Source: a virus
Lineage: Duplodnaviria; Heunggongvirae; Uroviricota; Caudoviricetes
IMG/VR virus record: IMGVR_UViG_644736364_000008
Length of the DNA: 64,000 nt
Strand: one strand, 5' to 3'
The translations under genes and the position numbers were made by a program. Below the pieces are notes generated by a model. The model was not told the origin of the DNA, ran no database searches, and saw nothing but the letters and a program-made list of their open reading frames with translations. This document shows positions 1,667 to 41,575 of this stretch, piece after piece; position 1 is the stretch's first letter, and every line of letters starts with the position of its first letter.

Positions 1667-1692
1667 AAACCTGCCGTAGCAGGTTCTCTTTC

Positions 1693-7065: not shown

Positions 7066-7119
7066 TTTGCTGTCCTGTCAATTGGGTTCTGGCGCGGTAT
7101 CCCGCGCCGTTCAGATATA

Positions 7120-7635: not shown

Positions 7636-7644
7636 GTTGTCCCC

Positions 7645-8817: not shown

Positions 8818-8951
8818 AAGGCAGTCTCTCCGGTTGTAGAGGGGGTCTGCCTATGTTCTGGTTGATACACGCAGGGTGCACGCGATGGGTTTTGTATGGA
8901 AAATGGCACAACGACGGGGCGAAAAAATCCCCGCAGGCGCGGGGCAGGAAT

Positions 8952-9554
8952 TTAAATTTCTGGTAGTTTGGGCCAGTTAATATCAGGGGCTGTGCTGATA
9001 TCTATTGCTGCTACCACGTCGATATAGTCAAGAACGGAATCGAGCTTTACTGTTTCTTCCGCAGTTAATTTTCTTCCCGCCTGCAATTTTAGTTGAATCA
9101 GAACAATGGAAGACATGGCATCATCAATCAGTGACTGGCGTTGCAGTTCAGCCCCTTCCACTGCTGCGTTATGTTGCGCTTTGGTATCCGTCACCCATTT
9201 CTCACCATCCCACTTATCGTATGGTGTTAACGGAGCAATAGTGGTTGTCTTTTCAGGGTAATCTCCCGGCACTGTGATTTCTTTTGAGTCCCCCGTTTCG
9301 GTGTTATAGACGATTTCACCGCGATGGTCTGGCACATATTCCCATGATCTCAAATCCAGAGTTCGACAGGACACATAACCTGACTTATATGAACCAGGAG
9401 CATCTAAACACGAATGTGCGGGAATACCGACGCCAACAGCAAGATATTCAGTTGATTCAGAAATATATTCCCGTGTTTCACCATCATAGTTATAGACGGT
9501 AATATTCCCCGCCTTCGTGGCAATAAGTTCGCTATTTAATACGGCTTTATCCAT
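8952..9554 (-). CDS. Tail fibre assembly protein (P2 gpG-like)
   Basis: 200-aa ORF downstream of the tail fibre gene; about 85 percent identical to the second copy at 41993-42595. Confidence 0.8.
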   Translation of the reverse strand: MDKAVLNSELIATKAGNITVYNYDGETREYISESTEYLAVGVGIPAHSCLDAPGSYKSGYVSCRTLDLRSWEYVPDHRGEIVYNTETGDSKEITVPGDYPEKTTTIAPLTPYDKWDGEKWVTDTKAQHNAAVEGAELQRQSLIDDAMSSIVLIQLKLQAGRKLTAEETVKLDSVLDYIDVVAAIDISTAPDINWPKLPEI

Positions 9555-11179: not shown

Positions 11180-11781
11180 GGATTCACTCTCATTGTGTCA
11201 ATAACATGGACCGCCCCGCCTTCATGCGCGGTGCCGCCGGAAATAATTGTTTCGTTGATATACGGATAGATCGTGATTTCTTCGCCAAGATAGCTGGCGG
11301 CTCCCACCCAATGCGGGCCGCTGGTCTGCAGGTTGATGGACATGCCGATCATGTGACGGCTACATGGTTTGGCATCGCTTATCAGTCGCTCAAGTTCCAG
11401 ATAGGTATCTTCAGTGATGCCCTGGTCCTGCACGCCGATATCCAGACGAAACGTGCCCGGTGTCTCTCCGGTCTGCCACCACTCAATAATGCGGATCAGA
11501 AAGCCGAACGGCTCCACCACCCGCCGCACGGCACTGGTGGTCCCTTTATGCTGATGAATATAAAAAGCATCCTTCACCACCTGGCGCTTGACGCTTTCTG
11601 TCCAGCCCTCATCCCAGCGATCCACAGAGAACGCCCAGGCGAGATAAGGTAGGAAACTGACCGGACAGGTTGCCGGATTCCACAAGTCACGCAGCGGCAC
11701 CTGCAGATCAGAAATCCCGCTACAGGTCTGCGCCAGTCGGCGCTCCAGTGAAGTTGAACCCGGTGGCAGCAGACTATTCAT
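11176..11781 (-). CDS. Baseplate protein I (P2 gpI-like)
   Basis: 201-aa ORF between J and H in P2 order. Confidence 0.75.
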   Translation of the reverse strand: MNSLLPPGSTSLERRLAQTCSGISDLQVPLRDLWNPATCPVSFLPYLAWAFSVDRWDEGWTESVKRQVVKDAFYIHQHKGTTSAVRRVVEPFGFLIRIIEWWQTGETPGTFRLDIGVQDQGITEDTYLELERLISDAKPCSRHMIGMSINLQTSGPHWVGAASYLGEEITIYPYINETIISGGTAHEGGAVHVIDTMRVNP

Positions 11782-12682
11782 CCGTTCCTCCGTTGGTTAC
11801 GCTCCACTGCGTACATGATGCGGCCTGTGTTTTGTTCAGGACCACATCAGCCAGCGGTGAAGCCAGCTCCACACGTTGAACCCCCTCAACATGCAGCGCG
11901 GCAAAAATGGCACTACGGCGAATATCCCGACCAAGCCGCGTCTGACTGGCGATGTACTTCTGCAGGCTGGCTTTTGCCGCTGCCATTACCGGCTCTGCTT
12001 CGGGCCCCGGATAGAGAAAAATGGTGGCTTCCACGCGGTACGGGATGATTTCTGCGCTGCGAACCGTAAGACGGTCAGCCACCGGGCGGACGTTCTCACT
12101 GTTCAGGGCTTTCTCCACCACATCCAGCAGGTCTTTTTCTGCTGTTCCGTCGCCTTCGCGGCTAAGGACAGTCAGCACCACCTCTGCAGGTGCCGGGCTG
12201 GTTGCACTGGCATCCGCCACCCGACCGTCGGCGCTTCGGGCATGAAATTCATAAGCTGCAGTTGGCCCCGCAACTGAAAGCCCTTCAAAGGCTGCAGGCA
12301 CACGCAGGCGTAACGCTTCATCACTTTCCATCACTGCCGCAACGGGCGGCACAGCGTCATTATCAGCAGGCGTCACCGTCAGGCGTTTCACGTTGTAATT
12401 GGCAGCGAGCTGGTCCAGATCGCTCCCTATGGCATAAGCCGCCATCACCGCCTGCGCGGCTTCGTTAATGCGCTGGCGCAGAAGCAACTCACGATAAGCG
12501 TTCTCCTGCAACAATTTGGTGACGGGTTCAGATTCCAGTTCCAGCGTGCGGATCACTGCTTCCTGCTCATCTTTCGGATGAAGCGCCACAAATTCTGCCT
12601 TGCGTTCGGCAAGCAGCGTCTCAAAGTCCGGCACATCCACAATCTGCGGTGCAGGCAACTGCGAAAGGTCAATCACTGCCAT
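11774..12682 (-). CDS. Baseplate protein J (P2 gpJ-like)
   Basis: ORF 11774-12721; start placed at internal Met (MAVIDLSQLPAPQIV), which matches the P2 gpJ N-terminus. Confidence 0.8.
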   Translation of the reverse strand: MAVIDLSQLPAPQIVDVPDFETLLAERKAEFVALHPKDEQEAVIRTLELESEPVTKLLQENAYRELLLRQRINEAAQAVMAAYAIGSDLDQLAANYNVKRLTVTPADNDAVPPVAAVMESDEALRLRVPAAFEGLSVAGPTAAYEFHARSADGRVADASATSPAPAEVVLTVLSREGDGTAEKDLLDVVEKALNSENVRPVADRLTVRSAEIIPYRVEATIFLYPGPEAEPVMAAAKASLQKYIASQTRLGRDIRRSAIFAALHVEGVQRVELASPLADVVLNKTQAASCTQWSVTNGGTDE

Positions 12683-13028
12683 TCTCTGCTCCTGTTGATA
12701 CGGAAAGGGACACAGGTACACCGTTATTCCGCCGCCCGGTCAGCTCCACCATCATTGAACCGTCAAAATTGCTGTTGATGGTGATGGAATCCAGCATCAG
12801 CCGTGGCTCCCAGCGACTCAGCGCCACATACACTGCCGACATGACCTGCAGGCGTAATGCCGGATTTTGTGGCTGATCTATCAGTGCCGACAGCAGGGAA
12901 CCATATTCCCGGCGAGCAATGCGGCTACCCTGCGGTGTCAGCAGAATGTCCCGCACCGACTGGCGCAGATGGTCAATATCAGTAATGGCTTTACCGCTGG
13001 TATTGTTCATCCCGCTATAAAGCGTCAT
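12669..13028 (-). CDS. Baseplate wedge protein W (gp25-like)
   Basis: 119-aa ORF between V and J. Confidence 0.75.
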   Translation of the reverse strand: MTLYSGMNNTSGKAITDIDHLRQSVRDILLTPQGSRIARREYGSLLSALIDQPQNPALRLQVMSAVYVALSRWEPRLMLDSITINSNFDGSMMVELTGRRNNGVPVSLSVSTGAENGSD

Positions 13029-13603
13029 ACCGGGCCTCCGGTTGTATCGCCGCCTTTCAGGACGCCAGTATGCTGATGCGCATCAACCACGATCCCGTTA
13101 GAACTCATCGCACCGCCGCCCTGGGTAACGCCGCCATTGATCACTACTTCACTATTAATACGCGTGCGGTCAGCCTCCAGCACAAACTCACTGGTTTTCA
13201 GGGTGATATTGTCGGCAGCCTCAATAACCATGGATTTGATGCCCCTGACATACCAGCGCCCGGTGGCGGGTTCGTATTCAAACCAGCCACCGTCAGGATG
13301 TTCTGTCACGCAGGCGTCCGCCGACGTCGACGGTGGTGCGAACTGATTCGAATAGACAGCGGGCAGCGCAAAGGCGGTCTCCAGATTGCCGCCCAGACTC
13401 AGCAGCACCACCTGCTCACCTTCCGATGGTCGCCACCATGTCCGGGCATTCCCGGCACGCAGGGTCAGCCAGCTGATCCAGTTGGTTTCTAAGTCGCCTG
13501 TTTTCACCCGACAAAGCCAGTTTTCCCGGTCCACTTCGGTGACTACCCCAGTGCGGATCAGGTTGGTGATAAGGCGCATGATTTCGGTTAGTTGTGTGTT
13601 CAT
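13025..13603 (-). CDS. Baseplate spike/assembly protein V
   Basis: 192-aa ORF, first gene of the V-W-J-I-H-G operon. Confidence 0.8.
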   Translation of the reverse strand: MNTQLTEIMRLITNLIRTGVVTEVDRENWLCRVKTGDLETNWISWLTLRAGNARTWWRPSEGEQVVLLSLGGNLETAFALPAVYSNQFAPPSTSADACVTEHPDGGWFEYEPATGRWYVRGIKSMVIEAADNITLKTSEFVLEADRTRINSEVVINGGVTQGGGAMSSNGIVVDAHQHTGVLKGGDTTGGPV

Positions 13604-13741
13604 GAAAATAGACTGCTATATCTCAAAATTGAGAAGTAGCTTTGATAGTTGTATCACGGCTGTCACAAACAACTGGCAAAAAACGACTACTATCTATAAA
13701 TTATTGAGAGTTATCTCATTAACAAAAAAGAAGCTTGGTAA

Positions 13742-15442
13742 ATGGAACACTTAAGACAACTGCAAAATAAAACTTCCCTGTTAGAAAAGTACGGGACTAG
13801 TAACGCACATCTTTTATGGTCATTAGGTCTTTACTTAGATGAATCCGATTTTGATAAGCTAGCATCTGATGGACTTACTGATGGTGGAAACGATAAGAAA
13901 ATAGACTTCATTACCGTAATTAATTCAACGTTATTTATTGCTCAGGGTTACTACTGCAATCAGCAAGCACTTAAAATAGTTGCGCCTGCAAATAAAGCTT
14001 CTGACTTAAACACTGCTTTAGCGTGGATTATGGCAGGCTCAGGAGAGTCTCCAAATGCAAAATTAAGAGCAAAAATTTCTGAGGTTAGAAAATTAATTGA
14101 TGATAACGAAATTGAAGCTGTTGAATTATTATATATCCATAATTGTGCCGAATCTGAGCAGGTTAAAACTGAGCTTGAAACTTGTCGTGACTATCTAGCA
14201 GGTAGATTTGCAGACAAAGAAATTGAGGTAACTTACAGAGAACTTGGTGTTAATAGTCTTGAAAAATTGTATATTGCGCTATCACAACAAATTGTTGTGA
14301 CTGACAATATAAAGTTCAATGGCGAACTTATAAATTCTGTACAAGGTGATGGCTGGACTTCACATGTTGGCTTTGCAAACGGCACTTGGCTAAATTATTT
14401 ATACAAAAATTATGGAGCAGAATTATTTTCTGCTAATTATAGGGGGTTCATGGGATTAAATAAGAGAAGAAAAATAAACTCATCAATTAAGAATACCGCA
14501 GAAACATCCCCAAAAGACTTCTTTGTCTTTAACAATGGTGTATCAATCCTAACAACAAAATTCAACAAAGAAAAAGGGTTGTTGGAAGGAGTTTCAATCA
14601 TAAATGGAGCTCAAACCACTGGTTCTATTGGTTCAGTTCAAGATATACAAAAATTAGATGGCCTAAAAGTCCTTTGTAAGGTTATTGAATGTAATGATGC
14701 GGACAAAGTAAAAAAAATAGTCCAGTATAATAATACTCAGAATCATATTACAACCTGGGATCACTACTCTAACAGCACAGAACAAAAACAGGTGGCAGAA
14801 GAATTTTCCACTCTTGGTTATACATATTCACTGAAACGCGGCTTCGAAAATACTGGTTCTTTATTTGGCATTGAGTCTGTTGCTCAACCGCTGATAGCGT
14901 TACATGGGGATTATGTTAGCGCCAATAGAGGTAAAAACTACGTTTTCGATACAAAATCAGCCTATGACAATGCCTTTCATGATTCGAAAGCCCAGCATAT
15001 TTTATGTGCTTACACTATTTCAAAAGCTATAGAAAAAGTAAAATCTCAAATCCGTGCAAAAGAGAATAAAATTAAAGTAGATGAGGATAACTTATTATTC
15101 CTCCAAAATTTAAAGTCTCGATTCTTTTTAATATCCGTCATCGGAGAAATACTTGAAGAATTAACAGATAAACCTTTGAACAAGAAGAAAATAAAATATA
15201 AATATGATACAGCATTATCTAAAAATAACTCTCTGGATGATTTAATCGACCTTTGGACACCAGTTATAACTGCGATATTACCACATGTTATCCGTGTTTC
15301 AGGTCAAGATTTAACCACCTACTTATCTGTAACAGACAACCCGTTATCTATCGTATCAAAGGAAGTTAAAAACATATTAACATCCTTAAAAGCGTTCCAA
15401 CCGATTGAGCCATTAATTACTCTTTCAAATCACCTTGAATAA
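13742..15442 (+). CDS. Cargo protein, 566 aa, candidate abortive-infection (AIPR-like) protein
   Basis: Low-GC ORF on the opposite strand between V and S; contains FFVFNNGVSILTT...INGAQTTGSIG, reminiscent of an NGxQT core; own AT-rich upstream region. Confidence 0.6.
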   Translation: MEHLRQLQNKTSLLEKYGTSNAHLLWSLGLYLDESDFDKLASDGLTDGGNDKKIDFITVINSTLFIAQGYYCNQQALKIVAPANKASDLNTALAWIMAGSGESPNAKLRAKISEVRKLIDDNEIEAVELLYIHNCAESEQVKTELETCRDYLAGRFADKEIEVTYRELGVNSLEKLYIALSQQIVVTDNIKFNGELINSVQGDGWTSHVGFANGTWLNYLYKNYGAELFSANYRGFMGLNKRRKINSSIKNTAETSPKDFFVFNNGVSILTTKFNKEKGLLEGVSIINGAQTTGSIGSVQDIQKLDGLKVLCKVIECNDADKVKKIVQYNNTQNHITTWDHYSNSTEQKQVAEEFSTLGYTYSLKRGFENTGSLFGIESVAQPLIALHGDYVSANRGKNYVFDTKSAYDNAFHDSKAQHILCAYTISKAIEKVKSQIRAKENKIKVDEDNLLFLQNLKSRFFLISVIGEILEELTDKPLNKKKIKYKYDTALSKNNSLDDLIDLWTPVITAILPHVIRVSGQDLTTYLSVTDNPLSIVSKEVKNILTSLKAFQPIEPLITLSNHLE

Positions 15443-15447
15443 ATAAC

Positions 15448-15474
15448 GGGTGGCCTCCTAGGCCACCCGTTCAT
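15448..15474. terminator. Bidirectional hairpin terminator between the 566-aa cargo gene and S
   Basis: AACGGGTGGCC-TCCTA-GGCCACCCGTT perfect 11-bp stem between convergent stops. Confidence 0.5.
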
Positions 15475-15497
15475 AACTTATTTTTAATCTAAAATTT

Positions 15498-15956
15498 TTA
15501 CGGCTTATTGTTATTAATTAACCATTGATAAAAAACATTCTTAACGTTGTTCTCAATATCATTGTTAATACCCAACAAACGCCGCTCTGCATACCGTACG
15601 TCCGGTCCTTTGCGACTGACGCGATCACGCAGACCGTAATGGTGAACACGGGCAATGCGCTGTACCTTACCTTCAAACTGCACGCTGGCAGAGTCGGCGC
15701 TGGCGGCAGTTTTCAGGTATTTTGTGGTGCGCAGCTTTGCAAACATCTGACGTTTGATACGGCCTTTTTTACTGCGTGCTGTTACCCGTCGCGGTTCATA
15801 GCTGCTGCCGTCAGGGTTGCGCTGCATCCTGATATTCTGCTGCTGTGTCCGGCGAAGTTCCTGCGCCAGCTGGCGCATCATGCGGCTTCTCGAGGCTGGT
15901 TCCAGATTCGCCAGCAAGGCACTCAGCCAGTCGTCCACCTTCTGCAGTTCAGCCAC
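15498..15956 (-). CDS. Tail completion protein S (P2 gpS-like)
   Basis: 152-aa ORF overlapping R; P2 R-S order. Confidence 0.75.
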   Translation of the reverse strand: MAELQKVDDWLSALLANLEPASRSRMMRQLAQELRRTQQQNIRMQRNPDGSSYEPRRVTARSKKGRIKRQMFAKLRTTKYLKTAASADSASVQFEGKVQRIARVHHYGLRDRVSRKGPDVRYAERRLLGINNDIENNVKNVFYQWLINNNKP

Positions 15957-16401
15957 ATTTCACCGTCCACATTTCTTCAGGTGCATCAGGTTCCGCTATA
16001 GCTTCAACGCTCGACACACTGCCGTCAGTGCTGACCAGCACACGTTCCGTCAGTTGCAGGTTCAGGCTGATATCACAGACATCGTTGCGCAGAATATCCA
16101 CCTCAAAGGTGAATAGCTTTTCCCGTAACGCCGGGTTATTGATGGCATCGGGCTGGTTATCCCTCAGCCACAGCAAAACCGGGGCCATCAGCAGATTCTG
16201 GTCGCCGCTGAAATCCTCAATCACCGCGTTCAGTGTGTAACGGTACTCCCACGACATGGAGCTGGCCCCCGTGGCAACCAGCGAACCGTTATCCACAAAC
16301 AGATGCAGTTTGTCCGGGTTATTGCGGACATAAGGCACCGCTTTATTGAGGGCGTGGCGCAGGGATTGTGGTTTGTTCACTGTTTCGCTCCTGACACGCA
16401 A
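15949..16401 (-). CDS. Tail completion protein R (P2 gpR-like)
   Basis: 150-aa ORF downstream of the lysis cassette. Confidence 0.75.
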   Translation of the reverse strand: MRVRSETVNKPQSLRHALNKAVPYVRNNPDKLHLFVDNGSLVATGASSMSWEYRYTLNAVIEDFSGDQNLLMAPVLLWLRDNQPDAINNPALREKLFTFEVDILRNDVCDISLNLQLTERVLVSTDGSVSSVEAIAEPDAPEEMWTVKCG

Positions 16402-16633
16402 TAATCATGTCCACTTTGTCTGCACAGACCGCCCAGGCGGCCTCCGTTTCATCCAGCAACGCGTTCAGATCACCGTTAGTGCGCGGCGTTGCCTGATCCA
16501 GCCGACACGGCGTCACTCGCGGACAACCACTGACGGTAAGCCATACCTCCGGTGAGTGCCGGACGTTTCCGCAGCCGGATAATGTCAGCAGGCAAAGGAG
16601 TATCAGCCCAGCGGCGTAAATCCTCGTTCTCAC
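16343..16633 (-). CDS. LysC-like outer-membrane spanin lipoprotein
   Basis: Signal peptide plus lipobox-like LTLSGC; overlaps the 3' end of LysB in another frame, as for Rz/Rz1-type pairs. Confidence 0.55.
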   Translation of the reverse strand: MRTRIYAAGLILLCLLTLSGCGNVRHSPEVWLTVSGCPRVTPCRLDQATPRTNGDLNALLDETEAAWAVCADKVDMIIACQERNSEQTTIPAPRPQ

Positions 16634-16904
16634 GTTTCAGTTCCTCGATCCGGTGTTGTCGTTGTCTCAGCAGCGTGCTGGTCTGTTCTGCTTCGGCATA
16701 GAGCCGCGCCTGCTCCCGGTTATTGGTTTCAGTCAGAATGGACAGGCTGATAAGCTGGCTATTGCTCTTTGCCAGTGCCTGGCTTTTGCTCTGCAGCTCG
16801 TCTGCCTGCGTGCTGATGGTCTGGCTGGCATCAGCCAGCCGCCACGTCTGCCAGCCCAGCGCCGCCAGTAATAACGTCAGCACAACCAGCAGCAACCGGT
16901 TCAT
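16476..16904 (-). CDS. LysB-like inner-membrane spanin
   Basis: 142-aa ORF with N-terminal TM helix and coiled-coil; follows lysA. Confidence 0.7.
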   Translation of the reverse strand: MNRLLLVVLTLLLAALGWQTWRLADASQTISTQADELQSKSQALAKSNSQLISLSILTETNNREQARLYAEAEQTSTLLRQRQHRIEELKRENEDLRRWADTPLPADIIRLRKRPALTGGMAYRQWLSASDAVSAGSGNAAH

Positions 16905-17350
16905 GCTGCTACCTGTTGCGCCATCTGATTACGGGTGATCCAGAAGGCAATAACGGTCAGTAGATAAAAGACCAGGGTAATAGCCCACCCCGTCCAGGCG
17001 AGACTTACAACAATCAGCAATCGCATCACCCAACTGGTAAATACGTTTTCTTTTCGAGTAATTGTCTTCAGCAAAGATGCCCTTAACTCCTGCCAGAGCG
17101 GGCCATTCTTAATTAACGCAGCCAGTGCTACCGGAATTACCGCCCATGTCAGCAAACAGGCTACCCAAACGCCGGACGCTGCCAGTACCGGAAAAATCCC
17201 CTGCGGATACACCATTGCTGCGATTAACAGCGCCATCCATAACATCAGAAACAGTCCGCTGATTAATTTCTTTTTCATTTCAGTTTGCTCCCTGTAAACA
17301 CCAGGCCATCTCCCGCGCACGGCGGTTATCCAGCCCCTGATTAAAAACAC
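16901..17350 (-). CDS. LysA-like membrane protein (lysis timing)
   Basis: 149-aa ORF with several hydrophobic helices between endolysin and lysB. Confidence 0.6.
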   Translation of the reverse strand: MFLIRGWITAVRGRWPGVYREQTEMKKKLISGLFLMLWMALLIAAMVYPQGIFPVLAASGVWVACLLTWAVIPVALAALIKNGPLWQELRASLLKTITRKENVFTSWVMRLLIVVSLAWTGWAITLVFYLLTVIAFWITRNQMAQQVAA

Positions 17351-17792
17351 CTTTCACATAAACCCAGCGCGGCAACTGTCGGCATGCATCCGCCCAGCGC
17401 CGCTGATTGAGCAATTTCACCAGCGTGGAACTACAGGCATTGCCCGTCCCCACGTTGAAGGCAAACGACACCGTAGCGTCATACACCTTCTGCGGCGGCT
17501 GTTGCTTCACACACCTTTCCAACGCCCGCTCCACTCGTAGCACGTTGGAGATCAGCCCTTCAGCTGCCTGTCGTTCCGTAATAATTTTGCCGGGAATGAC
17601 GCCCGACGTATTACCAATGCCGTCGGTCCAGACACCCGCGCTGCACTGATACGGCTGCAGACGACAGCCTTCATAATCAGCGATCAGTTTCAGTCCCTCC
17701 TCGGAGGTGTGAAGCTGCTGAAACCCCGGCAGCGTGGCAGCAATAGCCAGCACGGCCCCGACAAGGCAGCGTTTAACGATTGATGGATTCAT
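17280..17792 (-). CDS. Endolysin (lysozyme, P2 gpK-like, N-terminal signal-anchor type)
   Basis: 170 aa with hydrophobic N-terminus then LKLIADYEGCRLQPYQCSAGVWTDGIG lysozyme core. Confidence 0.85.
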   Translation of the reverse strand: MNPSIVKRCLVGAVLAIAATLPGFQQLHTSEEGLKLIADYEGCRLQPYQCSAGVWTDGIGNTSGVIPGKIITERQAAEGLISNVLRVERALERCVKQQPPQKVYDATVSFAFNVGTGNACSSTLVKLLNQRRWADACRQLPRWVYVKGVFNQGLDNRRAREMAWCLQGAN

Positions 17793-17988
17793 AGTCCTCC
17801 CGCGAGATCTGCCCGTCGCGCAGAAGCTGGTAGGCTTTGTGTTTGTAGTACCAGTTGATAGCCAGCATCAGCACACCGATCATCAGGCCGCCCAGCGTTG
17901 AGGCATCCTTGATGGACAAATCGCCCAGCCAGGCCAGCACGACGGCGATGCAATACGTGATAAAGGCGCTGATTCGCTCAAGCGTCAT
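17773..17988 (-). CDS. Holin (P2 gpY-like)
   Basis: 71-aa protein with two TM segments and charged C-terminus immediately upstream of the endolysin. Confidence 0.7.
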   Translation of the reverse strand: MTLERISAFITYCIAVVLAWLGDLSIKDASTLGGLMIGVLMLAINWYYKHKAYQLLRDGQISREDYESINR

Positions 17989-17991
17989 AAT

Positions 17992-18195
17992 TCAGTCCCA
18001 TAGCTGGACGGTCTGCACGGTGGTGGTGGTCGGAATGTCCGGCAGCTCCACCTGCAGCCCGTGAGGTAAAAAGGGGCCGTATTCGGCAAGCCCCGGATTT
18101 GCCTTCAGTACCTGCTCCGTGACACCCTGCGTGCGCCCGTAATGACGCCAGCAAAGTGCGTCCACCGTGTCATACTGATGCGCACGCACTTTCAT
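17992..18195 (-). CDS. Tail protein X
   Basis: 67-aa ORF between L and the holin, P2 order. Confidence 0.7.
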   Translation of the reverse strand: MKVRAHQYDTVDALCWRHYGRTQGVTEQVLKANPGLAEYGPFLPHGLQVELPDIPTTTTVQTVQLWD

Positions 18196-18722
18196 CAGAT
18201 AAGCTCCACTGTGCAGTGCGGCGCATCCTGCACCCGGCTGATGGCCCAGCGGGCGTCACGCCATAAATCACCGCTTGCTTCCGCCAGTTCCTCGCCTCGC
18301 TTCGCACCGGATGCCGTGGCGTCATAGTCCTGGTAACGTTCGTTGAGCATGGCGCGTGCCCAGCAGTAAACCGCGTTGAAATAGTGCTGAATGCGCTCGC
18401 TTTTGCCGTCCAGTTGTTCCGCCGGGACTTCTGCCAGCGAGGCATACCCCAGCATCTGCTGGCGTCTGCGAAACTCATACAGCTCTGCGTTGACCTCCGA
18501 AATTGCCGACAGGGCAACCTGTTTTAAACGCGGCTGCGTCACCGTGCCGTCAGTGCGCATCACACTGCGAAACTCCGACAGGTCCACATCAGGCCAGAAC
18601 GGCGTATTCCTGATGATTTCCGCCTGTTCCGGTGCCTGTTCTGGCGCAACAAACTTCATGCTGCTTTCTCCTGAAATAGAGGGCGGTGGACGGGGTTTTG
18701 ATGTGGCAGTGCCTTTCGCCAC
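18195..18722 (-). CDS. Head completion/stabilisation protein (P2 gpL-like)
   Basis: 175-aa ORF downstream of M. Confidence 0.75.
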   Translation of the reverse strand: MAKGTATSKPRPPPSISGESSMKFVAPEQAPEQAEIIRNTPFWPDVDLSEFRSVMRTDGTVTQPRLKQVALSAISEVNAELYEFRRRQQMLGYASLAEVPAEQLDGKSERIQHYFNAVYCWARAMLNERYQDYDATASGAKRGEELAEASGDLWRDARWAISRVQDAPHCTVELI

Positions 18723-18754
18723 CCCGTGCCGCCCGTGCGCGGGGGCACGTTCTG

Positions 18755-19405
18755 TCAGCGGCTGTCATTGCGCAGTCTGCGCTCTAGCTGCTGTTTGTCT
18801 TTTTTCACGCCACAGCGGGGATCGAGCTGTAACGCATGGTTGAGATGATTAAGGGCAGACGCCGGATTTCTTTCACTCAGGACAGCGCCAATCGCTTTAT
18901 GCAGACGCGCCCGTGACTGGTCCGGCATATCCATACCGTCTGTCAGCTCCAGGGTCTTCAGCAACAGATCGGTATCAAAGCCGGTGGCGGCAAGCATTGC
19001 GCTCTGGGCTGCATCTGCCATTTCCTCTGCCAGCACGGTCTGCACGTTGCGGTTACCTAACGGCATCACCCAGCCATGACGCAGGGCGTGACGCCCGATC
19101 TCCAGCGCCCCGGCATAATCTCCGGCATCAATGCGCCACAGCATCACGTACATCAGCACGTCATCCTGTTGAGCGCCTCCGGCAGCCAGGACACCCTCCG
19201 CCCAGGCGGCGTACTTCGGCAGCAGCTCCACCTTGATTTCCGCTTTTTTGACCGTGGACTGAACGCCCTTGAGACGGCGGCGGTCTTCCGCCAGTTGCAG
19301 CAGCATCAGGTCATAGCCCGACGCGTGGCGAACGCTGCCGCCCTCGCGGGCGGCCTGTTCAGCCTGAACGCGCAGGCGATGCTGCCGTGCGGGACTCAGG
19401 CTCAT
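18755..19405 (-). CDS. Terminase small (endonuclease) subunit (P2 gpM-like)
   Basis: 216-aa ORF downstream of the capsid gene N. Confidence 0.75.
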   Translation of the reverse strand: MSLSPARQHRLRVQAEQAAREGGSVRHASGYDLMLLQLAEDRRRLKGVQSTVKKAEIKVELLPKYAAWAEGVLAAGGAQQDDVLMYVMLWRIDAGDYAGALEIGRHALRHGWVMPLGNRNVQTVLAEEMADAAQSAMLAATGFDTDLLLKTLELTDGMDMPDQSRARLHKAIGAVLSERNPASALNHLNHALQLDPRCGVKKDKQQLERRLRNDSR

Positions 19406-19408
19406 GAA

Positions 19409-20467
19409 TTACGCTCCGGTTTCTGCTGCTGCGGCGCTGAAGTCGCCAATCTGGATGTTTTCCACCAGTGCGGCGCAGCGGTAGTCCTCAACCACATAGG
19501 CTTCGTTAACGGATTCAAAGTTTTCAATCCGGTCACGTTTCGGGTTGTCGATAACTGAGCGGCGGCGGGTGTCTTCCTGCCAGTAGATGGACAGGTTATC
19601 CAGACGGGTGATCAGCAGTGCATTCGGCGGGAAGAACGGCGCACGCACGGCCTGCAGGCCACCCATGCGTTTCTGACTGATGATCATATCAGCAGCCAGT
19701 TTTTCACTGTTTTCCTGCTCTTTGTTGACCAGCGGGAAATACTTGTCAGACAGCAGTTCACGACCGCAAATCACCACCAGATCGTCATCGTCCTGGTAGA
19801 CCACATCGATAAGCTCATTGACGGCATCCATCACCACGGCGTCCAGGTTGGCATATTCGCCACCTTTCCCGACTTTCACCGCACCCGGTGTGGTTTCACC
19901 GCCCGTGGTGGTGCTGCCCATGACGTGATCCGGTGCATCTTCACGGATTTTCTGCAGCCAGCCTTTGTTCACATCCTGCAGCAGCGGGTTTTCGCTACGG
20001 TTGGAGGTTTTCGCACGCTTCACGCCGTTAAAGCCGATCATGATGCGGTCCAGAGCCTGACGTTTCACGATGGCGTCACGGATGCGCACCTGGAAATCCT
20101 GAAACTTCGCCCACAGGTCCAGCTTCGCGTAGGTCAGCACCGTGTCAAAGTTGGTCTGCTCGCATTTATATTCCACATCGACCATCAGCGTCGGATCGAC
20201 AGGTTCACGCTCTTTCGCGGTGGTGTCAGTGGTTCCGGCAATGGTGCTGCCAACTCCCAGCCCCAGCAGCTGACCGGACTGCTCAGTCACTGGCGTGACG
20301 TTAATCAGCGTCAGGAAAGCGGCGGACTGCTGGATCTGGTCTTCCAGCGTCTGCTGCACAGACGGCTCCACGGTGAACTTGCTGGACAGTTCTTCAACTG
20401 CCACACCGTTCAGACGCGCCAGCTGCTGCAGGTAAGCGTTAAAAGCAAAGCGGGTATTCTTCTTCAT
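19409..20467 (-). CDS. Major capsid protein (P2 gpN-like)
   Basis: 352-aa ORF downstream of scaffold. Confidence 0.9.
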   Translation of the reverse strand: MKKNTRFAFNAYLQQLARLNGVAVEELSSKFTVEPSVQQTLEDQIQQSAAFLTLINVTPVTEQSGQLLGLGVGSTIAGTTDTTAKEREPVDPTLMVDVEYKCEQTNFDTVLTYAKLDLWAKFQDFQVRIRDAIVKRQALDRIMIGFNGVKRAKTSNRSENPLLQDVNKGWLQKIREDAPDHVMGSTTTGGETTPGAVKVGKGGEYANLDAVVMDAVNELIDVVYQDDDDLVVICGRELLSDKYFPLVNKEQENSEKLAADMIISQKRMGGLQAVRAPFFPPNALLITRLDNLSIYWQEDTRRRSVIDNPKRDRIENFESVNEAYVVEDYRCAALVENIQIGDFSAAAAETGA

Positions 20468-32747: not shown

Positions 32748-33767
32748 ATGACTGTCAGAAAACAGCCAAACGGTAAATGGTTGTGCGAGTGCTATCCCAA
32801 TGGACGCAATGGCAAGCGCGTGCGTAAGCAATTTGCTACGAAAGGCGAAGCCATTGCTTTTGAAAGCTTCACAATGGAAGAAGTGAACAAAAAACCATGG
32901 CTGGGGGAAAAGGAAGATCGGCGACACCTATCAGAATTAATTGAGCAGTGGTATTCCCTGTATGGTCAAACACTCGCAGACCCCAAGCGCCTCATAGCGA
33001 AACTTAGAATTATCTGTAATGGTCTAGGCGATCCCATCGCTTCAGAACTGACAGCCGGTGACTTTACGAAATACCGCGAAGCACGGTTAAAAGGTGAAGT
33101 ACGAAATGAAGATGGCACGTTTATGTCGCCCGTTAAGCCCCGCACGGTAAACCTTGAACAGCGCAATCTATCATCTGTTTTTGGTACACTGAAAAAGCTG
33201 GGCCACTGGTCAGCCCCCAACCCGCTTGCTGGGCTGCCAACATTTAAAATTGCTGAGAGTGAATTGGCGTTCCTGACCCCGGAAGAAATTAAACGTCTGC
33301 TGGATGCCTGCGCCGATTCTCAAAGCTCCAGCCTGCTTTTGATTGCAAAAATATGCCTGGCCACCGGCGCACGCTGGAGCGAAGCCGAAAACCTGCAGAG
33401 TCATCAGGTATCAAAATACCGTATCACTTATACCAAGACCAAAGGCAAGAAAAACCGAACTGTGCCTATTTCTAAGGATTTATATGAAGAACTGCCTAAG
33501 AATAGGGGGAAGTTATTCACCCCATGCAGAAAAGCCTTTGAGCGTGCAGTAAAGCGAGCCGGTTTAGAACTACCAGAAGGCCAATGTACCCATGTTCTGC
33601 GCCATACATTTGCCAGTCATTTTATGATGAACGGTGGAAATATACTGGTACTGCGCGATATTCTTGGACATGCCGATATAAAAATGACGATGATTTACGC
33701 TCATTTTTCCCCAGATCATCTTGAAGATGCAGTAACTAAAAACCCATTAGCAACCTTGATGGATTAA
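32748..33767 (+). CDS. int: Tyrosine integrase
   Basis: 339 aa with HVLRHTFASH...LGHADIKMTMIYAHF catalytic-region motifs. Confidence 0.9.
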   Translation: MTVRKQPNGKWLCECYPNGRNGKRVRKQFATKGEAIAFESFTMEEVNKKPWLGEKEDRRHLSELIEQWYSLYGQTLADPKRLIAKLRIICNGLGDPIASELTAGDFTKYREARLKGEVRNEDGTFMSPVKPRTVNLEQRNLSSVFGTLKKLGHWSAPNPLAGLPTFKIAESELAFLTPEEIKRLLDACADSQSSSLLLIAKICLATGARWSEAENLQSHQVSKYRITYTKTKGKKNRTVPISKDLYEELPKNRGKLFTPCRKAFERAVKRAGLELPEGQCTHVLRHTFASHFMMNGGNILVLRDILGHADIKMTMIYAHFSPDHLEDAVTKNPLATLMD

Positions 33768-35111: not shown

Positions 35112-35157
35112 ATGTAGGAATTTCGGACGCGGGTTCAACTCCCGCCAGCTCCACCAA
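35112..35157. repeat. attR: second copy of the 46-bp ssrA 3'-end repeat
   Basis: Exact repeat of 1016-1061. Confidence 0.8.
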
Positions 35158-35284
35158 TCATGATTGGACGGTGTAAGGACAACACCAACAAAAACAGGAA
35201 GTTAGAAGTCTCAGCAGGACACCGACCAGACGGTGAGGAGACATAAAAGGATACGCAAAGGAGCCGCGGCTCCGAAGTGAAATG

Positions 35285-35310
35285 AAAGCCCGCTGATGCG
35301 GGCTTTTTTG
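35285..35310 (+). terminator. Rho-independent terminator
   Basis: GCCCGC-TGAT-GCGGGC followed by TTTTTT. Confidence 0.5.
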
Positions 35311-35735
35311 CTTCTTCTCTTTAGCCTGATTCGACACTCTCAATGCGGCCATAAACAACAACCCACTTTTCTTATACCGTAGCCTGTCCCCCTCTTCCTG
35401 CTTTCTAACCATAACAGATGTGAGCGTTTGCTATGAGCGATATATAGTCATTCGTACCCTCCGATACTAATCATCACAGAAATTAATATATTCATTCCTT
35501 ACTGAAAAGCTATGAAGTAGATATATAGGATTGGGGCGCGTATGGCACTGGACAGTTATGCATCTCCGAATATTATTCCGGAGCTAAGACAACCGAATGC
35601 CGCAGCAGGTAAGATCACGCTAGGGGGGCTGGACAGAATGGCTGTTACGCCCAGTGTGAAGAAAAGAAGGCTAAGTATGGTAGAATTTCCATACGCACAG
35701 ACCTTGTTATCCGACTATACAGCCTGGAAGGCACT

Positions 35736-36524
35736 ATGACAAATCTACAACTGGAAGAAAGATTTAGGGCGCTTGAGAAAGATTACGATGCGCTCATTTC
35801 CACAAAATATACTGCGCAGAACGTTCTCACTCACACTATGGAAACCTATGTTGATTCTGGTAAATATAAAAACTGGATCGCCAGAGTGAAAAAGTTAATA
35901 GAGGACAGCTACGGAAAAGAGTCTGATTATTACAATGACTTCAATACTGTAAACAGCAGGTGGTCTTCTAATTACAATACACTGATCAAAAGTTATAAAC
36001 CGTTGTTTGATGCGGCGAGAGATGATCTTGCGCACTCTGCTGTCAGTACTAATACTCCTCAAGAAGGTTCGCCGCTGAGCCTCGTACTTAATATTCTTAA
36101 CAGGTTTCCGACCTTTGTTCGCCAGTTAAAGAGGCGGTACAACGGCCGTGCGCCGCTTGAAGTTAATGATGAGTATGACGTACAGGATTTGATTTATGCA
36201 CTGCTGACGCTTCATTTTAATGATATTAGGGCGGAAGAGTATACCCCCAGCTTTGCGGGCGCGGCCTCAAGACAGGACTTTCTTTTGAAAAAAGAGAAAA
36301 TTGTGATAGAGGTGAAGAAAACCCGTGAATCTCTGGGAGCGGGTAAAGTTGGTGGAGAGTTGCTTATTGATATGGCGCGCTACCGCGCTCACCAAGACTG
36401 CGATACGTTGATCTTGTTTGTATATGACCCGGATTGCTACATAAATAATCCTTTGGGCGTGAAAACCGATCTGGAATCTAAAGACGCGGAAGGAAAAGTG
36501 AAGGTTGTTATTGCGCAGTTCTGA
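35736..36524 (+). CDS. Hypothetical protein with PD-(D/E)xK-like nuclease signature
   Basis: 262 aa; GGAAGG RBS; C-terminal half has DIRAEEYTP ... KIVIEVKKT (D...E-x-K pattern); N-terminal coiled-coil. Confidence 0.5.
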   Translation: MTNLQLEERFRALEKDYDALISTKYTAQNVLTHTMETYVDSGKYKNWIARVKKLIEDSYGKESDYYNDFNTVNSRWSSNYNTLIKSYKPLFDAARDDLAHSAVSTNTPQEGSPLSLVLNILNRFPTFVRQLKRRYNGRAPLEVNDEYDVQDLIYALLTLHFNDIRAEEYTPSFAGAASRQDFLLKKEKIVIEVKKTRESLGAGKVGGELLIDMARYRAHQDCDTLILFVYDPDCYINNPLGVKTDLESKDAEGKVKVVIAQF

Positions 36525-36557
36525 CACGCTTAAGTGTCACCTTACAGGATTAGGTTT

Positions 36558-36606
36558 GCGGCCGTGCCAGCAGGACGAGCATGAAAAAGGCCGCTGGCAC
36601 GGCCGG
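36558..36606. terminator. Long hairpin between convergent genes
   Basis: 12-bp perfect inverted repeat GGCCGTGCCAGC ... GCTGGCACGGCC. Confidence 0.4.
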
Positions 36607-36611
36607 ATTTG

Positions 36612-36905
36612 TCATCTTTGCCAGGTCAAATCAAAATCTACGTGAAAATCCGCAGGCTTAAGCTCGCAACTGCCACCACGCCCAATTAACGACGTTATGT
36701 TTACAACGTTTGAACCTGTTGAGATGGCAAGTTGAGTGTCATCTGTAAACGTGATGATTAGCATTTCAGTCTGATGAACCTGTACTCCAGTTTTCTGAAA
36801 ACCAATCTGGACAGATTTCACCGTTTTCCCAACCATTTCACGGGCTTGATTGATAGAGTAATTAGCTTCAACTTGTAGGTCATTCCTGAACTTGGGTAGT
36901 GTCAT
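36612..36905 (-). CDS. Hypothetical small protein (97 aa)
   Basis: ORF downstream of, and same strand as, the GIY-YIG gene. Confidence 0.45.
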   Translation of the reverse strand: MTLPKFRNDLQVEANYSINQAREMVGKTVKSVQIGFQKTGVQVHQTEMLIITFTDDTQLAISTGSNVVNITSLIGRGGSCELKPADFHVDFDLTWQR

Positions 36906-37115
36906 TTTACATCCTCTTTAGTGAAGTTTTCGCTATTTAAATCAGCAGCATTCCTTTTAAATCACTGGCATGTCAGCAGTGGATAGTCTGAGTGTAACGT
37001 CCAGTGAGGGGAATAAATATTGGTCAGACTTTGCACAAAAGAGCCAACTATCGCGGGCTCTCTCTCATCATGTGCGAAAATTGACCACAATATGAAATCC
37101 AGTTCCATTCCGAAA

Positions 37116-37940
<825 letters not shown>

Positions 37941-38043
37941 TCAATTGACAACTTATAATCCCTACTAGTTAGCATTATGATTTCCAGAGTGAGGAATATA
38001 AAAATCTCTGTTTCTGGCACATAACAGCCCTTAAGATCGTAGC

Positions 38044-38096
38044 TCGCCATCATGGGGTGTCGGGGGGCGGAGGTTCAAATCCTCTCGTGCCGACCA
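38044..38096 (+). tRNA. Partial tRNA-Pro (3' fragment only; anticodon region to CCA)
   Basis: CATGGGGTGTCGGGGGGCGGAGGTTCAAATCCTCTCGTGCCGACCA matches the 3' part of tRNA-Pro(GGG); no complementary 5' acceptor strand (CGGCACG) upstream. Confidence 0.6.
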
Positions 38097-38110
38097 AAAA
38101 TCCCTTAAGA

Positions 38111-38137
38111 ACCAGCCTATTATGGCTGGTTTTTTTA
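38111..38137 (+). terminator. Rho-independent terminator after the tRNA fragment
   Basis: ACCAGCC-TATTAT-GGCTGGT followed by TTTTTTT. Confidence 0.55.
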
Positions 38138-38337
38138 TGATTGTTTTTTATGCGGAGAAATACCGGGGAATAATTGGGGTAAAACACCTTTAGGCTATTC
38201 ACTTAGCCTACCACCATCAAAATCTTTCCGAATGTATCCATCTCTTTTTTCTTATGCAGCTAAAACGAAGTCTTGATACTGTTTATTTACACAGATAAGA
38301 ATAATACTGTCTACAAACGCAGTACAAAAGAAGTGTT

Positions 38338-38517
38338 ATGCGTATTGAGATCTCCATAGCCAAAGACAAAATGACCAAATGCCAAACGGCGCTGTGGACG
38401 CGTTAAAGGAAGAATTAACCCAACACATTGGCAAGCGTTATGACGATGTGGAGATGATCGTAAAAGCCACCAGCAACGATAGTTTTTCAGTTAGACATAC
38501 TGCAGATAAAGATTGAG
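38338..38517 (+). pseudogene. dinI-like gene interrupted by a frameshift
   Basis: Frame 1 [16 protein letters not shown]... stops after 22 codons; a shifted frame continues ...[32 protein letters not shown], together resembling DinI. Confidence 0.45.
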
Positions 38518-38880
38518 CTAAAACTTTCGTTCAGGAAACTCTGAATGATACCTGAGAGTCTACTGAAGAGTTGTTTGTTCACTAGTTAGCACGTAGGAAA
38601 TCATTCAATACTCGCACTATCGGAAGTTCACCAGCCAGTCGTAGCACGTCCTTGCAAACGACGTGCCTACGGTTTCAATCACCTCTCACCATCAATTCTA
38701 TCAATAATAATTAAACAGCGCCTAGACAAAATAAATAACAACAAGTCAACAACCTCGACAGGATGCCGATGGGATGATGAAGAGATAAGAAAGAATAACC
38801 AGTAAAGCCCTAAAACGTCAGCGTTCAGACGCGTTTTTTACTTAATCGGTAACAAATACGTTGTATCATAGCAAAATAAA

Positions 38881-40830
38881 ATGATTGTTCTAAATCAGAT
38901 TAACTCCTCACTTTTGTACAATGTCGCTTACAGGTATACCATGAAATCCGAGACGCTAACTGTCCAACAACTTTTTCAAGACCGCCGACAATACTGTGTT
39001 CCATTCTATCAACGTGCCTATGTATGGACTCAGCAAGACCAGTGGTCAGCTCTACTGGAGGATATCCTAGAGAAAGTACAATCCCGGCTCTCGGGTACAA
39101 AACCAACTCCCCATTTCCTTGGTGCGGTTGTACTGGAACCTCAATCAAAAAAAGGATTATTAGGTGTAGATTCCATACATATTATTGATGGTCAGCAACG
39201 ATTGACCACTCTTCAATATGTTCTGGCATCCATCCGATTAGCATTACGTGCTACGGATCTTTCCAGCTTAGAGGCTCTCATTTCGCCTTGCCTGAAAAAC
39301 TCAAACGAAGACACAATGCGAAATAAAGAAGTAGAACGCTTCAAACTGTGGCCAACTTTTCGGGATCAAACTCATTTTATTCAAAGTTTTAATGTTGAAA
39401 ATATTGACGATCTCCGGGACGTATTCTCTGATAGTTTCACGCAGCATGGTACGTTGCGTAAGCATTTTAATCACCCGCCATCACTAGAAGCATTATGTTT
39501 TTTTACTGAAGCCTTTATAAAATGGATTAAAATAGAAAACCACTCACCACAAGAAAATGCTGTAGCTCTAATTGAGGCTGTCTTAACAGATCTGAAACTG
39601 GTAAGCATATTTCTCGAAGCTGAAGATGATGCCCAAATAATTTTTGAAACATTAAATGGGCGAGGGGCGGAACTTCATGCTACGGATCTTATTCGCAACT
39701 ATATCTTTATGTGCGCTGAGCATGAAAATATTAATGCTATTGAATTATATGAAAATGAGTGGAAGAGCTTTGAAGATAAATACTGGTCGGAAAAACAACG
39801 CCGTGGACGTATTAATAAACCACGCATGGAGTGGCTAGTACATGCGACATTGCAATCAGAAAGGCAACGTGAAATTGATCTGTCTCGCCTTTACAATGAG
39901 TATCGTGATTATGTAAGTAAGGACTTGTCTTCACAACGAGCAGATCTGCAAGTAAAGCGCCTCAAACAATATGCATCACAATATAAAGAATTGGTTGATG
40001 GTTTTGGCACAACCCCCATCTCACACTTTGGATATCGCATCGCAGACTATGATGTGACGACACTTTATCCGCTTGCTTTGTTCATTTCGATAGCTAACAT
40101 CGCTGATGATGAGAAAGCAGCCATGTATAATGATCTTGTCTCCTACGTAGTACGAAGAGCCGTATGTGGCCTGACGCCAAAGAATTACAACAATGTATTT
40201 ATGAATGTATTGCGGCACTTGGCTAAAACGGAAATTTCCAGTGTTGAGTTACGTAATATCCTCAATAACTTAAATGGCGAAGCCTCACGTTGGCCTGGTG
40301 ACTCAGAATTTCTCAACGCTTGCATCAATGCTCCACTTTATCCTGGCAGGCTCGACGCACCGAAAATGCGCTCAATGTTAACGGAACTTGAAAGAGAACT
40401 TTGTCGCCAAGTAAAGACAGAAAAGCCTGATGTTCCAAATCTTTCTAATCTCGATATCGATCATCTTATGCCTCAAAGTTGGTATTCCTGTTGGCCTCTC
40501 GAAAATGGTCGTATGGTGACAAATTCAGATGCTACGGTATTGAACCAAATTGTTCTGTCTGGAACCGATCTTACCCCTGAACAGCTACTGGTAAGGAAAC
40601 GGCAACAAGCGATATCTACTTTGGGAAATCTAACTTTGCTTAACCTTAGCGTAAACCGTTCTGTTCAGAATGCTGTATTTCTGAAAAAACGTGATGCTCT
40701 CATCGTCCACACCAATCTACGACTGAACATTCCACTTATAGTTAAGGATAAATGGGATGAGGATGAAATCCTGGAGCGGGGTAAAAAGTTGGGGGAAATT
40801 GCATTGAAAGTATGGCCAAAACACGATTAA
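38881..40830 (+). CDS. GmrSD-family type IV restriction endonuclease (DUF262 + DUF1524/HNH-like)
   Basis: N-terminal IIDGQQRLTTLQY (DGQQR motif) and C-terminal DIDHLMPQSW ... GNLTLLNLSVNRSVQN His-Me finger motifs; alternative start at 38941. Confidence 0.75.
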   Translation: MIVLNQINSSLLYNVAYRYTMKSETLTVQQLFQDRRQYCVPFYQRAYVWTQQDQWSALLEDILEKVQSRLSGTKPTPHFLGAVVLEPQSKKGLLGVDSIHIIDGQQRLTTLQYVLASIRLALRATDLSSLEALISPCLKNSNEDTMRNKEVERFKLWPTFRDQTHFIQSFNVENIDDLRDVFSDSFTQHGTLRKHFNHPPSLEALCFFTEAFIKWIKIENHSPQENAVALIEAVLTDLKLVSIFLEAEDDAQIIFETLNGRGAELHATDLIRNYIFMCAEHENINAIELYENEWKSFEDKYWSEKQRRGRINKPRMEWLVHATLQSERQREIDLSRLYNEYRDYVSKDLSSQRADLQVKRLKQYASQYKELVDGFGTTPISHFGYRIADYDVTTLYPLALFISIANIADDEKAAMYNDLVSYVVRRAVCGLTPKNYNNVFMNVLRHLAKTEISSVELRNILNNLNGEASRWPGDSEFLNACINAPLYPGRLDAPKMRSMLTELERELCRQVKTEKPDVPNLSNLDIDHLMPQSWYSCWPLENGRMVTNSDATVLNQIVLSGTDLTPEQLLVRKRQQAISTLGNLTLLNLSVNRSVQNAVFLKKRDALIVHTNLRLNIPLIVKDKWDEDEILERGKKLGEIALKVWPKHD

Positions 40831-41080
40831 TGCAATTAATAAAATGATTATAGTGGCCTTACATTAGTAAGGCCGCTACTCACTATTAAATACTTTAATT
40901 TGCATCAAGAACAGCAGTGTCAGCCCTAGGTCTCGGACTTTGTACCGCTTATCTTGTCTTCAAAAATCAGCTCGCATCCTGCACAGTTCAGCGCATTACG
41001 TTGTAGATCTGTGTTCTGGTCATTTGTTGACACACGTACATAGCCAATAAGCATGGTAGATCTCCCTGACAAAAGCAGGA

Positions 41081-41575
41081 ATGATGCCATTTGCTCGTTA
41101 TTTCTGCATTTTCATAAACGTTGGTTTGGGAGAAGCGGCAAAACGGAATGTGGGCAACGGGGAAAACCAAATCCCTGATATGTCTTTCTGGACGGTTACT
41201 GGTGGCAATGGAAATTTTGTGATTCGTCAACCTGACGGGCTAATCATTCAGATGGTTACTGTAAGTATAAGCGGCCCAGTGGCGATGAATGGAATGACTG
41301 ATAATGCTTATGCCATCACAGGTTCTAATAAGTCTTATATTGCCACAGCCACATTGCCCTTTGTATTTCCTAATAAGGTGCTGGGCGTTATCCCTCTGGT
41401 ATCAACAACAGCTTATGGTGGTGTATCCAGTAATATTACAGGTTCATACGCGACGGCGGTTTGTTCTTTTGCCGCTGTCAGGGGGAATAATACGATTGTG
41501 TTCAAAGTCGACAAACCACTGAATGCAGCCTTTCCTTCAGATACCAGCGTCTCAGCGTTAATCATTGGACGGTAA
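41081..41575 (+). CDS. Alternative tail-fibre C-terminal cassette (S'v-like)
   Basis: Gly/Ser/Thr-rich 164-aa ORF in inverted orientation; its codons 11-18 (FINVGLGE) carry the crossover site. Confidence 0.55.
   Translation: MMPFARYFCIFINVGLGEAAKRNVGNGENQIPDMSFWTVTGGNGNFVIRQPDGLIIQMVTVSISGPVAMNGMTDNAYAITGSNKSYIATATLPFVFPNKVLGVIPLVSTTAYGGVSSNITGSYATAVCSFAAVRGNNTIVFKVDKPLNAAFPSDTSVSALIIGR

Follow-up and report, generated by a model that had tools for sequence, protein, structure and literature searches.

The DNA analysed here is a stretch of 64,000 nucleotides from a Caudoviricetes record of the IMG/VR database (IMGVR_UViG_644736364_000008), and it is referred to below as the window. The tmRNA gene ssrA lies near its left end, at positions 698–1060 on the plus strand, and was called by both ARAGORN and Rfam. 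The last 25 nucleotides of this gene (1036–1060) form the first copy of an attachment-site core that is used by both of the prophages described below. This 25-mer has two copies in the window, at 1036–1060 and at 35132–35156, and it is the same as the published attP/attB sequence of the ssrA-integrating phage PhiNP (PMC6456863). Two prophages stand in tandem at ssrA (698–35156), the P2-like prophage A being placed between the gene and prophage B, which is of the type found in Escherichia coli UTI89. Prophage A (1061–35111) is absent from UTI89, and a query of 18.9 kb taken from it (window 1061–20000) matched Escherichia phage 500465-1 at 98% identity, with 83% query coverage. Its P2-type integrase (32748–33767, plus strand; Pfam Int_N and Phage_integrase) is the sole integrase in the window.

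A second copy of the ssrA 3′ end, 45 nt long (35112–35156, plus strand), marks the junction of the two prophages and is the attL of prophage B. It is followed by the phage-borne flank on the P′ side of an ssrA-type attP (35157–35309, plus strand), which is common to the attP of phage LLS, to strain CFT073, to a dog isolate and to IMG/VR contig L021 at 89–95% identity. The depositors of phage LLS marked attP and a 'tmRNA pseudogene' at the homologous position, and the flank behind them is the same. The remainder of prophage B in the window (40932–64000) holds an invertase remnant and tail fibre, Mu-like tail, HK97-like head, lysis and antiterminator genes. Prophage B also has early genes like those of e14 and KplE1, and it extends past the window end.

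ST95-type E. coli chromosomes (UTI89, APEC O1 and IHE3034) have the same sequence as the window from approximately 35157 onward. UTI89 therefore stands in here for the right end and the integrase of prophage B, the identity having been checked over 37000–39500 and 35310–38060. In UTI89, prophage B ends about 12 kb past the window end with an integrase, three small open reading frames and, as attR, a third copy of the ssrA 3′ end that is slightly degenerate, after which come a flank 90% identical to window 35157–35309 and then glaH. This attR copy (2943132–2943159; 5133–5160 of locus L003) has lost CTCCA, 5 nt, from the 3′ end of ssrA and carries two mismatches besides, and such degeneracy might impair prophage excision. 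The prophage B integrase is 86% identical to that of phage LLS, and it showed no significant similarity to the proL-type, Eeyore-family integrase of the avian pathogenic (APEC) strain E19057. The ssrA repeats at both ends, together with the LLS-type integrase, identify prophage B as an ssrA-integrating phage and, judged from these sequences, it would be excised at ssrA.

Between the ssrA-type flank and the tRNA fragment that is the subject of this study lies a variable cargo slot of prophage B (35310–38046). In the window, this slot encodes a DpnII/MboI-type REase-domain protein (35736–36524, plus strand; Pfam/PADLOC), a hypothetical protein (36612–36905, minus strand) and the GIY-YIG protein PD-T4-3 (37116–37889, minus strand; PADLOC E = 7e-137). 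CFT073, the dog isolate and L021 instead hold unrelated cargo of about 0.9 kb, which comprises AbiTii in CFT073 and two unknown open reading frames in the dog isolate. The order of ssrA, cargo, tRNA-Pro relic and DinI-like pseudogene recurs in all three, and the only sequence that they have in common with the window is 35112–35309 and the stretch from 38047/38051 onward. Strains SE11 and L26 carry the GIY-YIG cassette, at 89% identity, within unrelated prophage cargo, with homology ending at 38021. In some strains the IS66-family element ISCro1 is inserted at window position 37982 (strain 729_270514_x_12), 57 nt upstream of the relic, and in others the cargo slot is interrupted by IS3-family elements.

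The tRNA-Pro piece lies 2.9 kb inside prophage B. Its distance from ssrA is 2.9 kb in UTI89 and 37 kb in the window, where the gene is farther upstream because an extra element is present. In an alignment with the native E. coli proL locus, positions 38051–38096 (plus strand) were identical to tRNA-Pro(GGG) from C31, in the last pair of the anticodon stem, to A76 at 45 of 46 positions, and this block retains the anticodon loop, the T arm, the 3′ acceptor strand and the CCA end. The single difference is a T to G change at 38067, in the variable loop. This change is common to 17 IMG/VR contigs, including one (L030) with an Eeyore-family integrase about 1 kb upstream, and it is thus a lineage marker and not necessarily a sign of decay. 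The 28-mer GGAGGTTCAAATCCTCTCGTGCCGACCA, which covers the T arm and acceptor, has one copy in the window, with none expected from 100 shuffles.

To the left of the identity block, an imperfect tRNA-like extension at 38039–38050 (plus strand) corresponds to approximately proL positions 19–30, with 3 mismatches in 12–13 nt, and includes the left half of the anticodon stem. Compared by eye, these 12 nt gave 10 of 13 matches to the tRNA as against 5 of 13 to the Eeyore-type P arm, and they are likely to be a putative left core-type integrase site. They carry CCATC where proL has CCGTC; the CFT073 relic has the same CCATC, and the dog-isolate relic has CCATT. No exact match to this left part of the window copy, GTAGCTCGCCATC, as a living tRNA-Pro variant was found in 185,579 species genomes, and its 21-mer occurs only in three viral contigs, which have the same flanking sequence. 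Left of 38039 similarity to proL is lost in the alignment, and both the 5′ acceptor strand and the D arm are absent.

The whole of 38039–38138 consists of GTAGCTCGCCATCATGGGGTGTCGGGGGGCGGAGGTTCAAATCCTCTCGTGCCGACCA, a 10-nt spacer, the hairpin AAGAACCAGCC-TATTAT-GGCTGGTTTTT and a T-run, and over 100 nt the relic with its terminator shares approximately 87% identity with the proL locus of the chromosome. The intrinsic terminator (38107–38138, plus strand) has a stem of 11 pairs at 38107–38134 followed by the T-run, with a dG of -16.8 kcal/mol and z = -5.4. It is borne by the phage and homologous to the terminator of native proL, from which its stem differs by compensatory changes (CCAGCC/GGCTGG versus CCAACC/GGTTGG). 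The first-pass annotation, made from the letters alone, had described some 50 nt matching the anticodon-to-CCA part of tRNA-Pro(GGG), a strong terminator behind them and the loss of the 5′ acceptor and D arms, and these measurements bear out all three descriptions.

Beyond the terminator are three direct repeats, GGAGAA/GGGGAA/GGGGTA (38154–38181, plus strand), which start at 38154, 38165 and 38176 and are 11 bp apart. Repeats of this GGGGAA-like kind are kept in phages Eeyore, Flotzy and Phi06_2987, in Salmonella phage Gifsy-2 and in the IMG/VR copies. By analogy with P′1–P′3 of phage lambda, they are probably the arm-type integrase sites of a P′ arm. The flank 3′ of the CCA in the window is of the phage type and not of the native proL type, and the window has the features of a proL-type attP, namely an identity block from the anticodon loop to CCA and a P′ arm with terminator and repeats.

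The next gene to the right is a DinI-like pseudogene (38338–38555, plus strand), known from the RefSeq annotation of the identical UTI89 sequence, which is the first gene of a module common to the proL-integrating relatives. A GmrSD-type (type IV, modification-dependent) restriction enzyme follows at 38881–40830 on the plus strand, with Pfam GmrSD_N and GmrSD_C domains, a full-length PADLOC match to mREase_IV and a RefSeq start at 38941. Defence genes are accordingly found around the relic, the REase-domain protein and PD-T4-3 on one side and the GmrSD enzyme just beyond it on the other. Both the DinI-like gene, which has a frameshift and an internal stop, and the pin/fin-type invertase remnant (40932–41054) are pseudogenes, and both are in the same state in E19057.

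Software for tRNA detection gave no call at the fragment. ARAGORN, run on the whole window, returned the tmRNA at 698–1060 as its sole call, the tmRNA was also the sole match in the window to Rfam at gathering score, and a permissive Rfam scan of 37900–38250 listed no tRNA match. These results rule out a complete but unusual tRNA; the folding of 38020–38096 as a complete tRNA was an outcome that the first-pass annotation had named as fatal to its reading. A decayed full-length tRNA-Pro with its 5′ half at 38015–38050 was also considered. An acceptor-like TGGCACA at 38015–38021 is able to pair with the 3′ acceptor strand, but resemblance to the proL 5′ half upstream of the fragment was not significant in the window (shuffle p = 0.15) and the motif that includes TGGCACA recurs in the SE11 cassette, where no tRNA part accompanies it. 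The decayed full-length gene is therefore unproven.

The TGGCACA motif belongs to a stub to the left of the att core (38003–38038, plus strand), whose motif, ending in TCTGTTTCTGGCACA, also occurs in IMG/VR contigs L028 and L029 and in the SE11 GIY-YIG cassette, and which forms the joint between cassette and att remnant. A motif of about 20 nt, AACGTC.GCTCCTGGCACA, is common to the GIY-YIG cassette of an unrelated SE11 prophage and to proL-type att remnants of viral contigs (window 38003–38021; approximately 6905–6927 of locus L013 in SE11; L028; L029), and it may be a recurrent recombination joint. Left flanks related to that of the window are found in contigs L028, L029 and L031. The Rfam tRNA model aligns end to end with the related L028 copy at 21.8 bits (threshold 29), with a 20-nt insert replacing the D arm, and the attR of E19057 reaches 18.1 bits against the same model and threshold. 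On the strength of these two hits, the phage arms of the proL type may be descended from the capture of a whole tRNA gene.

Homologous copies of the proL 3′ segment, with the terminator and the downstream arm, are carried by phages Eeyore, Flotzy and Phi06_2987, and window 38051–38179 is 82% identical to Eeyore. In these free-phage copies identity to proL runs from exactly CATGGGG to CCA, at 46 of 46 positions. The gene order in Eeyore and Flotzy is integrase, proL 3′ piece with terminator, DinI, and invertase or tail fibres, and a proL piece adjacent to the integrase is the layout of a working attP. The relic resembles the attP of these three phages in its C31–A76 segment, its homologous terminator and its GGGGAA-repeat arm, and also in the DinI-like gene followed by invertase or tail-fibre genes that comes next, as known from the order in Eeyore and Flotzy. 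It differs from a working proL-type attP in that no integrase is adjacent, a defence cassette stands in place of the P arm and the host prophage uses another site. Neither the Eeyore nor the E19057 integrase matched the window by tblastn, which, with the ARAGORN and Rfam results, upholds the earlier statement that the window holds no intact tRNA-Pro gene and no cognate integrase. To the left of the window core there is no homology to the P arm of E19057 or Eeyore; the PD-T4-3 cassette and a 36-nt stub are found there instead. The ssrA-type attP of PhiNP and LLS has the same 25-nt core as the working site of prophage B, and LLS also shares the flank and the 86%-identical integrase; unlike prophage B, LLS and Ayreon have no proL relic. 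A literature search found no described proL-integrating coliphage and no description of the relic.

The strain E19057 carries a related, partly degraded prophage in a genuine proL gene. At one end of it the order is yejM, a complete tRNA-Pro, which was called by ARAGORN, and phage flank. Apart from an IS2, the sequence 3′ of the CCA in E19057 is 98–99% identical to window 38039–41182 (3.1 kb); the terminator, DinI-like pseudogene, GmrSD enzyme (98.3% identical between the two) and invertase remnant all fall within this stretch. The proL attL of E19057 and the relic are therefore alike from the anticodon loop rightward, and they differ in that the former is fused to the host proL 5′ half behind yejM as a complete tRNA, whereas the relic has no 5′ half. 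At the other end of the E19057 prophage are an integrase 77% identical to that of Eeyore, an attR with native proL flank, and then yejO and narP. The attR (NZ_CP126934 1974888–1974965; 7889–7966 of locus L006) is annotated by PGAP as a second, 78-nt tRNA-Pro, a call that ARAGORN does not make, and it is probably a pseudo-tRNA formed as a hybrid of phage arm and tRNA, with a compensated acceptor stem (CGGCGCG). The phage flank is found behind an annotated tRNA-Pro, as the attL of a resident prophage, in approximately 120 of 5426 complete E. coli genomes. In a proL lysogen the phage-type flank thus belongs to the proximal junction, attL, where it completes the tRNA; the native type of flank follows the CCA at the E19057 attR and at empty proL sites.

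These flank types bear directly on how the fragment came to lie where it does. The 3′ part of a tRNA gene without its 5′ half has the classic look of an attR, and the window contains neither proL nor a cognate integrase, so that the fragment could be read as the distal junction of a former tRNA-Pro island or prophage that was later parted from its tRNA and integrase by rearrangement or deletion. However, an attR has native flank after the CCA, as the true attR of E19057 does, and the fragment has the phage type; the integrase-proximal phage arm is missing on its left. Moreover, the prophage in which the site lies is delimited by ssrA repeats and has no intact proL at its other end, and ssrA prophages that hold different cargo carry this relic too. 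The proL gene of UTI89 is intact and unoccupied, between yejM and narP, 473 kb from the fragment. An attR origin is hardly credible on this evidence. Integration of prophage B into a pseudo-site by a proL-type integrase was rejected as well, as no proL-like sequence is present at its right end and its integrase is of the LLS/ssrA type.

The first-pass annotation had offered two explanations of the fragment. The phage-carried, attP-like sequence that it had mentioned last agrees with the Eeyore-type attP and with the phage-type flank; its view of the fragment as the distal side of an integration at this place does not. Likewise, the past tRNA-Pro integration at this place, followed by rearrangement or deletion, is contradicted by the flank, by the ssrA-bounded prophage and by the intact proL of UTI89, which became apparent when the gene was located, empty, at 473 kb and the flanks were compared with the native locus and with E19057. 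Its title for the feature, a relic attachment site, is a fair one and has been kept.

The fragment is very probably the phage-borne half of a proL-type attachment site, now disused, that was left behind by a swap of the integrase/att module in an ssrA prophage. In phages of this group that integrate at proL, a copy of the tRNA gene from the anticodon loop to CCA lies just downstream of the integrase, and behind it come the phage's own copy of the proL terminator and an arm that bears three GGGGAA repeats. When such a phage integrates, a crossover in or near the anticodon loop would exchange the 3′ part of the host proL for the phage copy. Because the phage copy replaces the 3′ part of the gene, proL would remain intact and properly terminated. 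Prophage B has the right-hand module of such a phage, with the att remnant, the DinI-like pseudogene, the GmrSD enzyme, the invertase remnant and the tail fibres. The segment that begins directly behind yfdR, takes in the integrase and ends at the left margin of the att core would have been exchanged for one of the ssrA type. We infer the direction and the mechanism of this swap from the homology pattern: the early-gene segment yfdP–yfdR is 97.8% identical in prophage B and the E19057 prophage, homology ends just after yfdR, and it resumes at the att core, which points to an exchange of the block through the integrase to the P arm. As a result, the old proL site would have been stranded 2.9 kb inside prophage B, with defence cargo between the working ssrA site and the relic. 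The left boundary common to the relics is right at the edge of the att core (38047–38051), and such a shared boundary could mean that the junction was made by site-specific and not by general recombination.

Relics of the same kind are decaying in different ways. The CFT073 relic has CAA in place of CCA, the dog-isolate relic has two substitutions, a 2-nt deletion in the acceptor and changes in the terminator stem and T-run, and the Gifsy-2 relic has a 7-nt deletion. Unlike these sister relics with their differing damage, all attP, attL and attR copies examined are exact over the 46 nt. The window copy differs from E19057 at two positions in approximately 100 nt, in keeping with the 98–99% identity of the 3.1 kb around it; special conservation of the relic is therefore unsupported, and no extra constraint is seen. 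The Gifsy-2 remnant (NC_010393 44256–44334) lies beyond sseI, close to the right end of that phage, and is a truncated att remnant of the proL type with T arm, acceptor, terminator and GGGG repeats. It is like the relic in its T-arm/acceptor segment, its similar terminator, its GGGG repeats and the same G variant, and it differs in being shorter, through the 7-nt deletion in its anticodon-side part, and in belonging to another phage, from another genus. Toward sseI, the nearest 4 kb or so contain no annotated integrase, and in the opposite direction the record stops after about 1.5 kb.

The good state of the window copy raises the question of present use. The core and the whole P′ arm are nearly intact, with one mismatch in 46 nt and the CCATC for CCGTC change in the left half-site, and a copy in this state could still be a target for a proL-type integrase acting in trans. 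The relic would then be a usable secondary site, either entered by a proL-type phage to give a 'prophage in prophage' or recombined by a trans-acting integrase with proL 473 kb away. The frequency of proL-type phages in E. coli (about 120 of 5426 genomes) would provide the opportunity, and a precedent is available in the 'attB-in-prophage' sequences of Nakamura et al. (2021), which are copies of chromosomal att loci, 81–87% identical to their sources, located near prophage ends and shared between prophages by recombination (PMC8112680). The relic is like them in being an approximately 87% identical copy of the proL locus inside prophage B. The attB-in-prophage sequences are derived from protein-coding or intergenic loci (yecE, ykgJ-ecpE and ompW; PMC8112680), whereas the source of the relic is a tRNA gene. 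Also, occupation by other phages has been demonstrated for those sites (PMC8112680), and for the relic no example was found among the genome records listed (60 of 249), in none of which was the window left flank joined to a different right flank. The numbers of records with the left flank and with the full junction differ by only a handful, and the records inspected among them have IS insertions. In addition, the decay of the sister relics argues against selection for use. Service as a secondary site is accordingly quite improbable.

A role at the RNA level was also weighed. The terminator, with or without the tRNA-like 3′ structure, might end or stabilize the cargo transcripts, or a small tRNA-derived RNA might be made. 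The terminator is strong, the cargo genes of CFT073 and the dog isolate are on the plus strand and run into the relic and its terminator, and a promoter-like site with 10 of 12 matches lies on the plus strand at 37879–37906. However, the adjacent gene in the window is on the opposite strand, and promoter-like sites are barely above shuffled sequence in number (5 found versus 2.6 ± 1.6). The terminator stem and T-run are mutated in the dog isolate, and no Rfam family matches at the fragment. Co-option as an RNA element is therefore very unlikely. As a stranded half-site, the relic most likely does nothing today, except possibly ending rightward transcription, because it has neither a 5′ tRNA half that it could complete nor a cognate integrase, and its original P arm is gone.

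A more speculative role concerns the cargo slot. The ssrA att flank (35112–35309) and the proL att relic (from 38047) might act as 'bookends' for swaps of defence genes by homologous recombination among the ssrA prophages of E. coli, or the near-intact core might still be used by proL-type integrases as a secondary site. Taken together, these possibilities are rather unlikely. If the bookends were real, the relic would persist as a recombination anchor, and possibly as a terminator, for a cargo hotspot.

The relic is a product of ordinary phage mosaicism and a fresh example, in vestigial form, of the well-known class of tRNA-gene attachment sites. It illustrates clearly how integration modules are exchanged in temperate phages, both parental kinds of site being known from sequenced virions and lysogens. 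Orphan tRNA fragments such as this one can mislead programs that call island or prophage boundaries; the true boundary here is the ssrA repeat 2.9 kb upstream. The relic is also a landmark for a small and sharply bounded slot in which anti-phage genes vary among uropathogenic and avian pathogenic lineages of E. coli.
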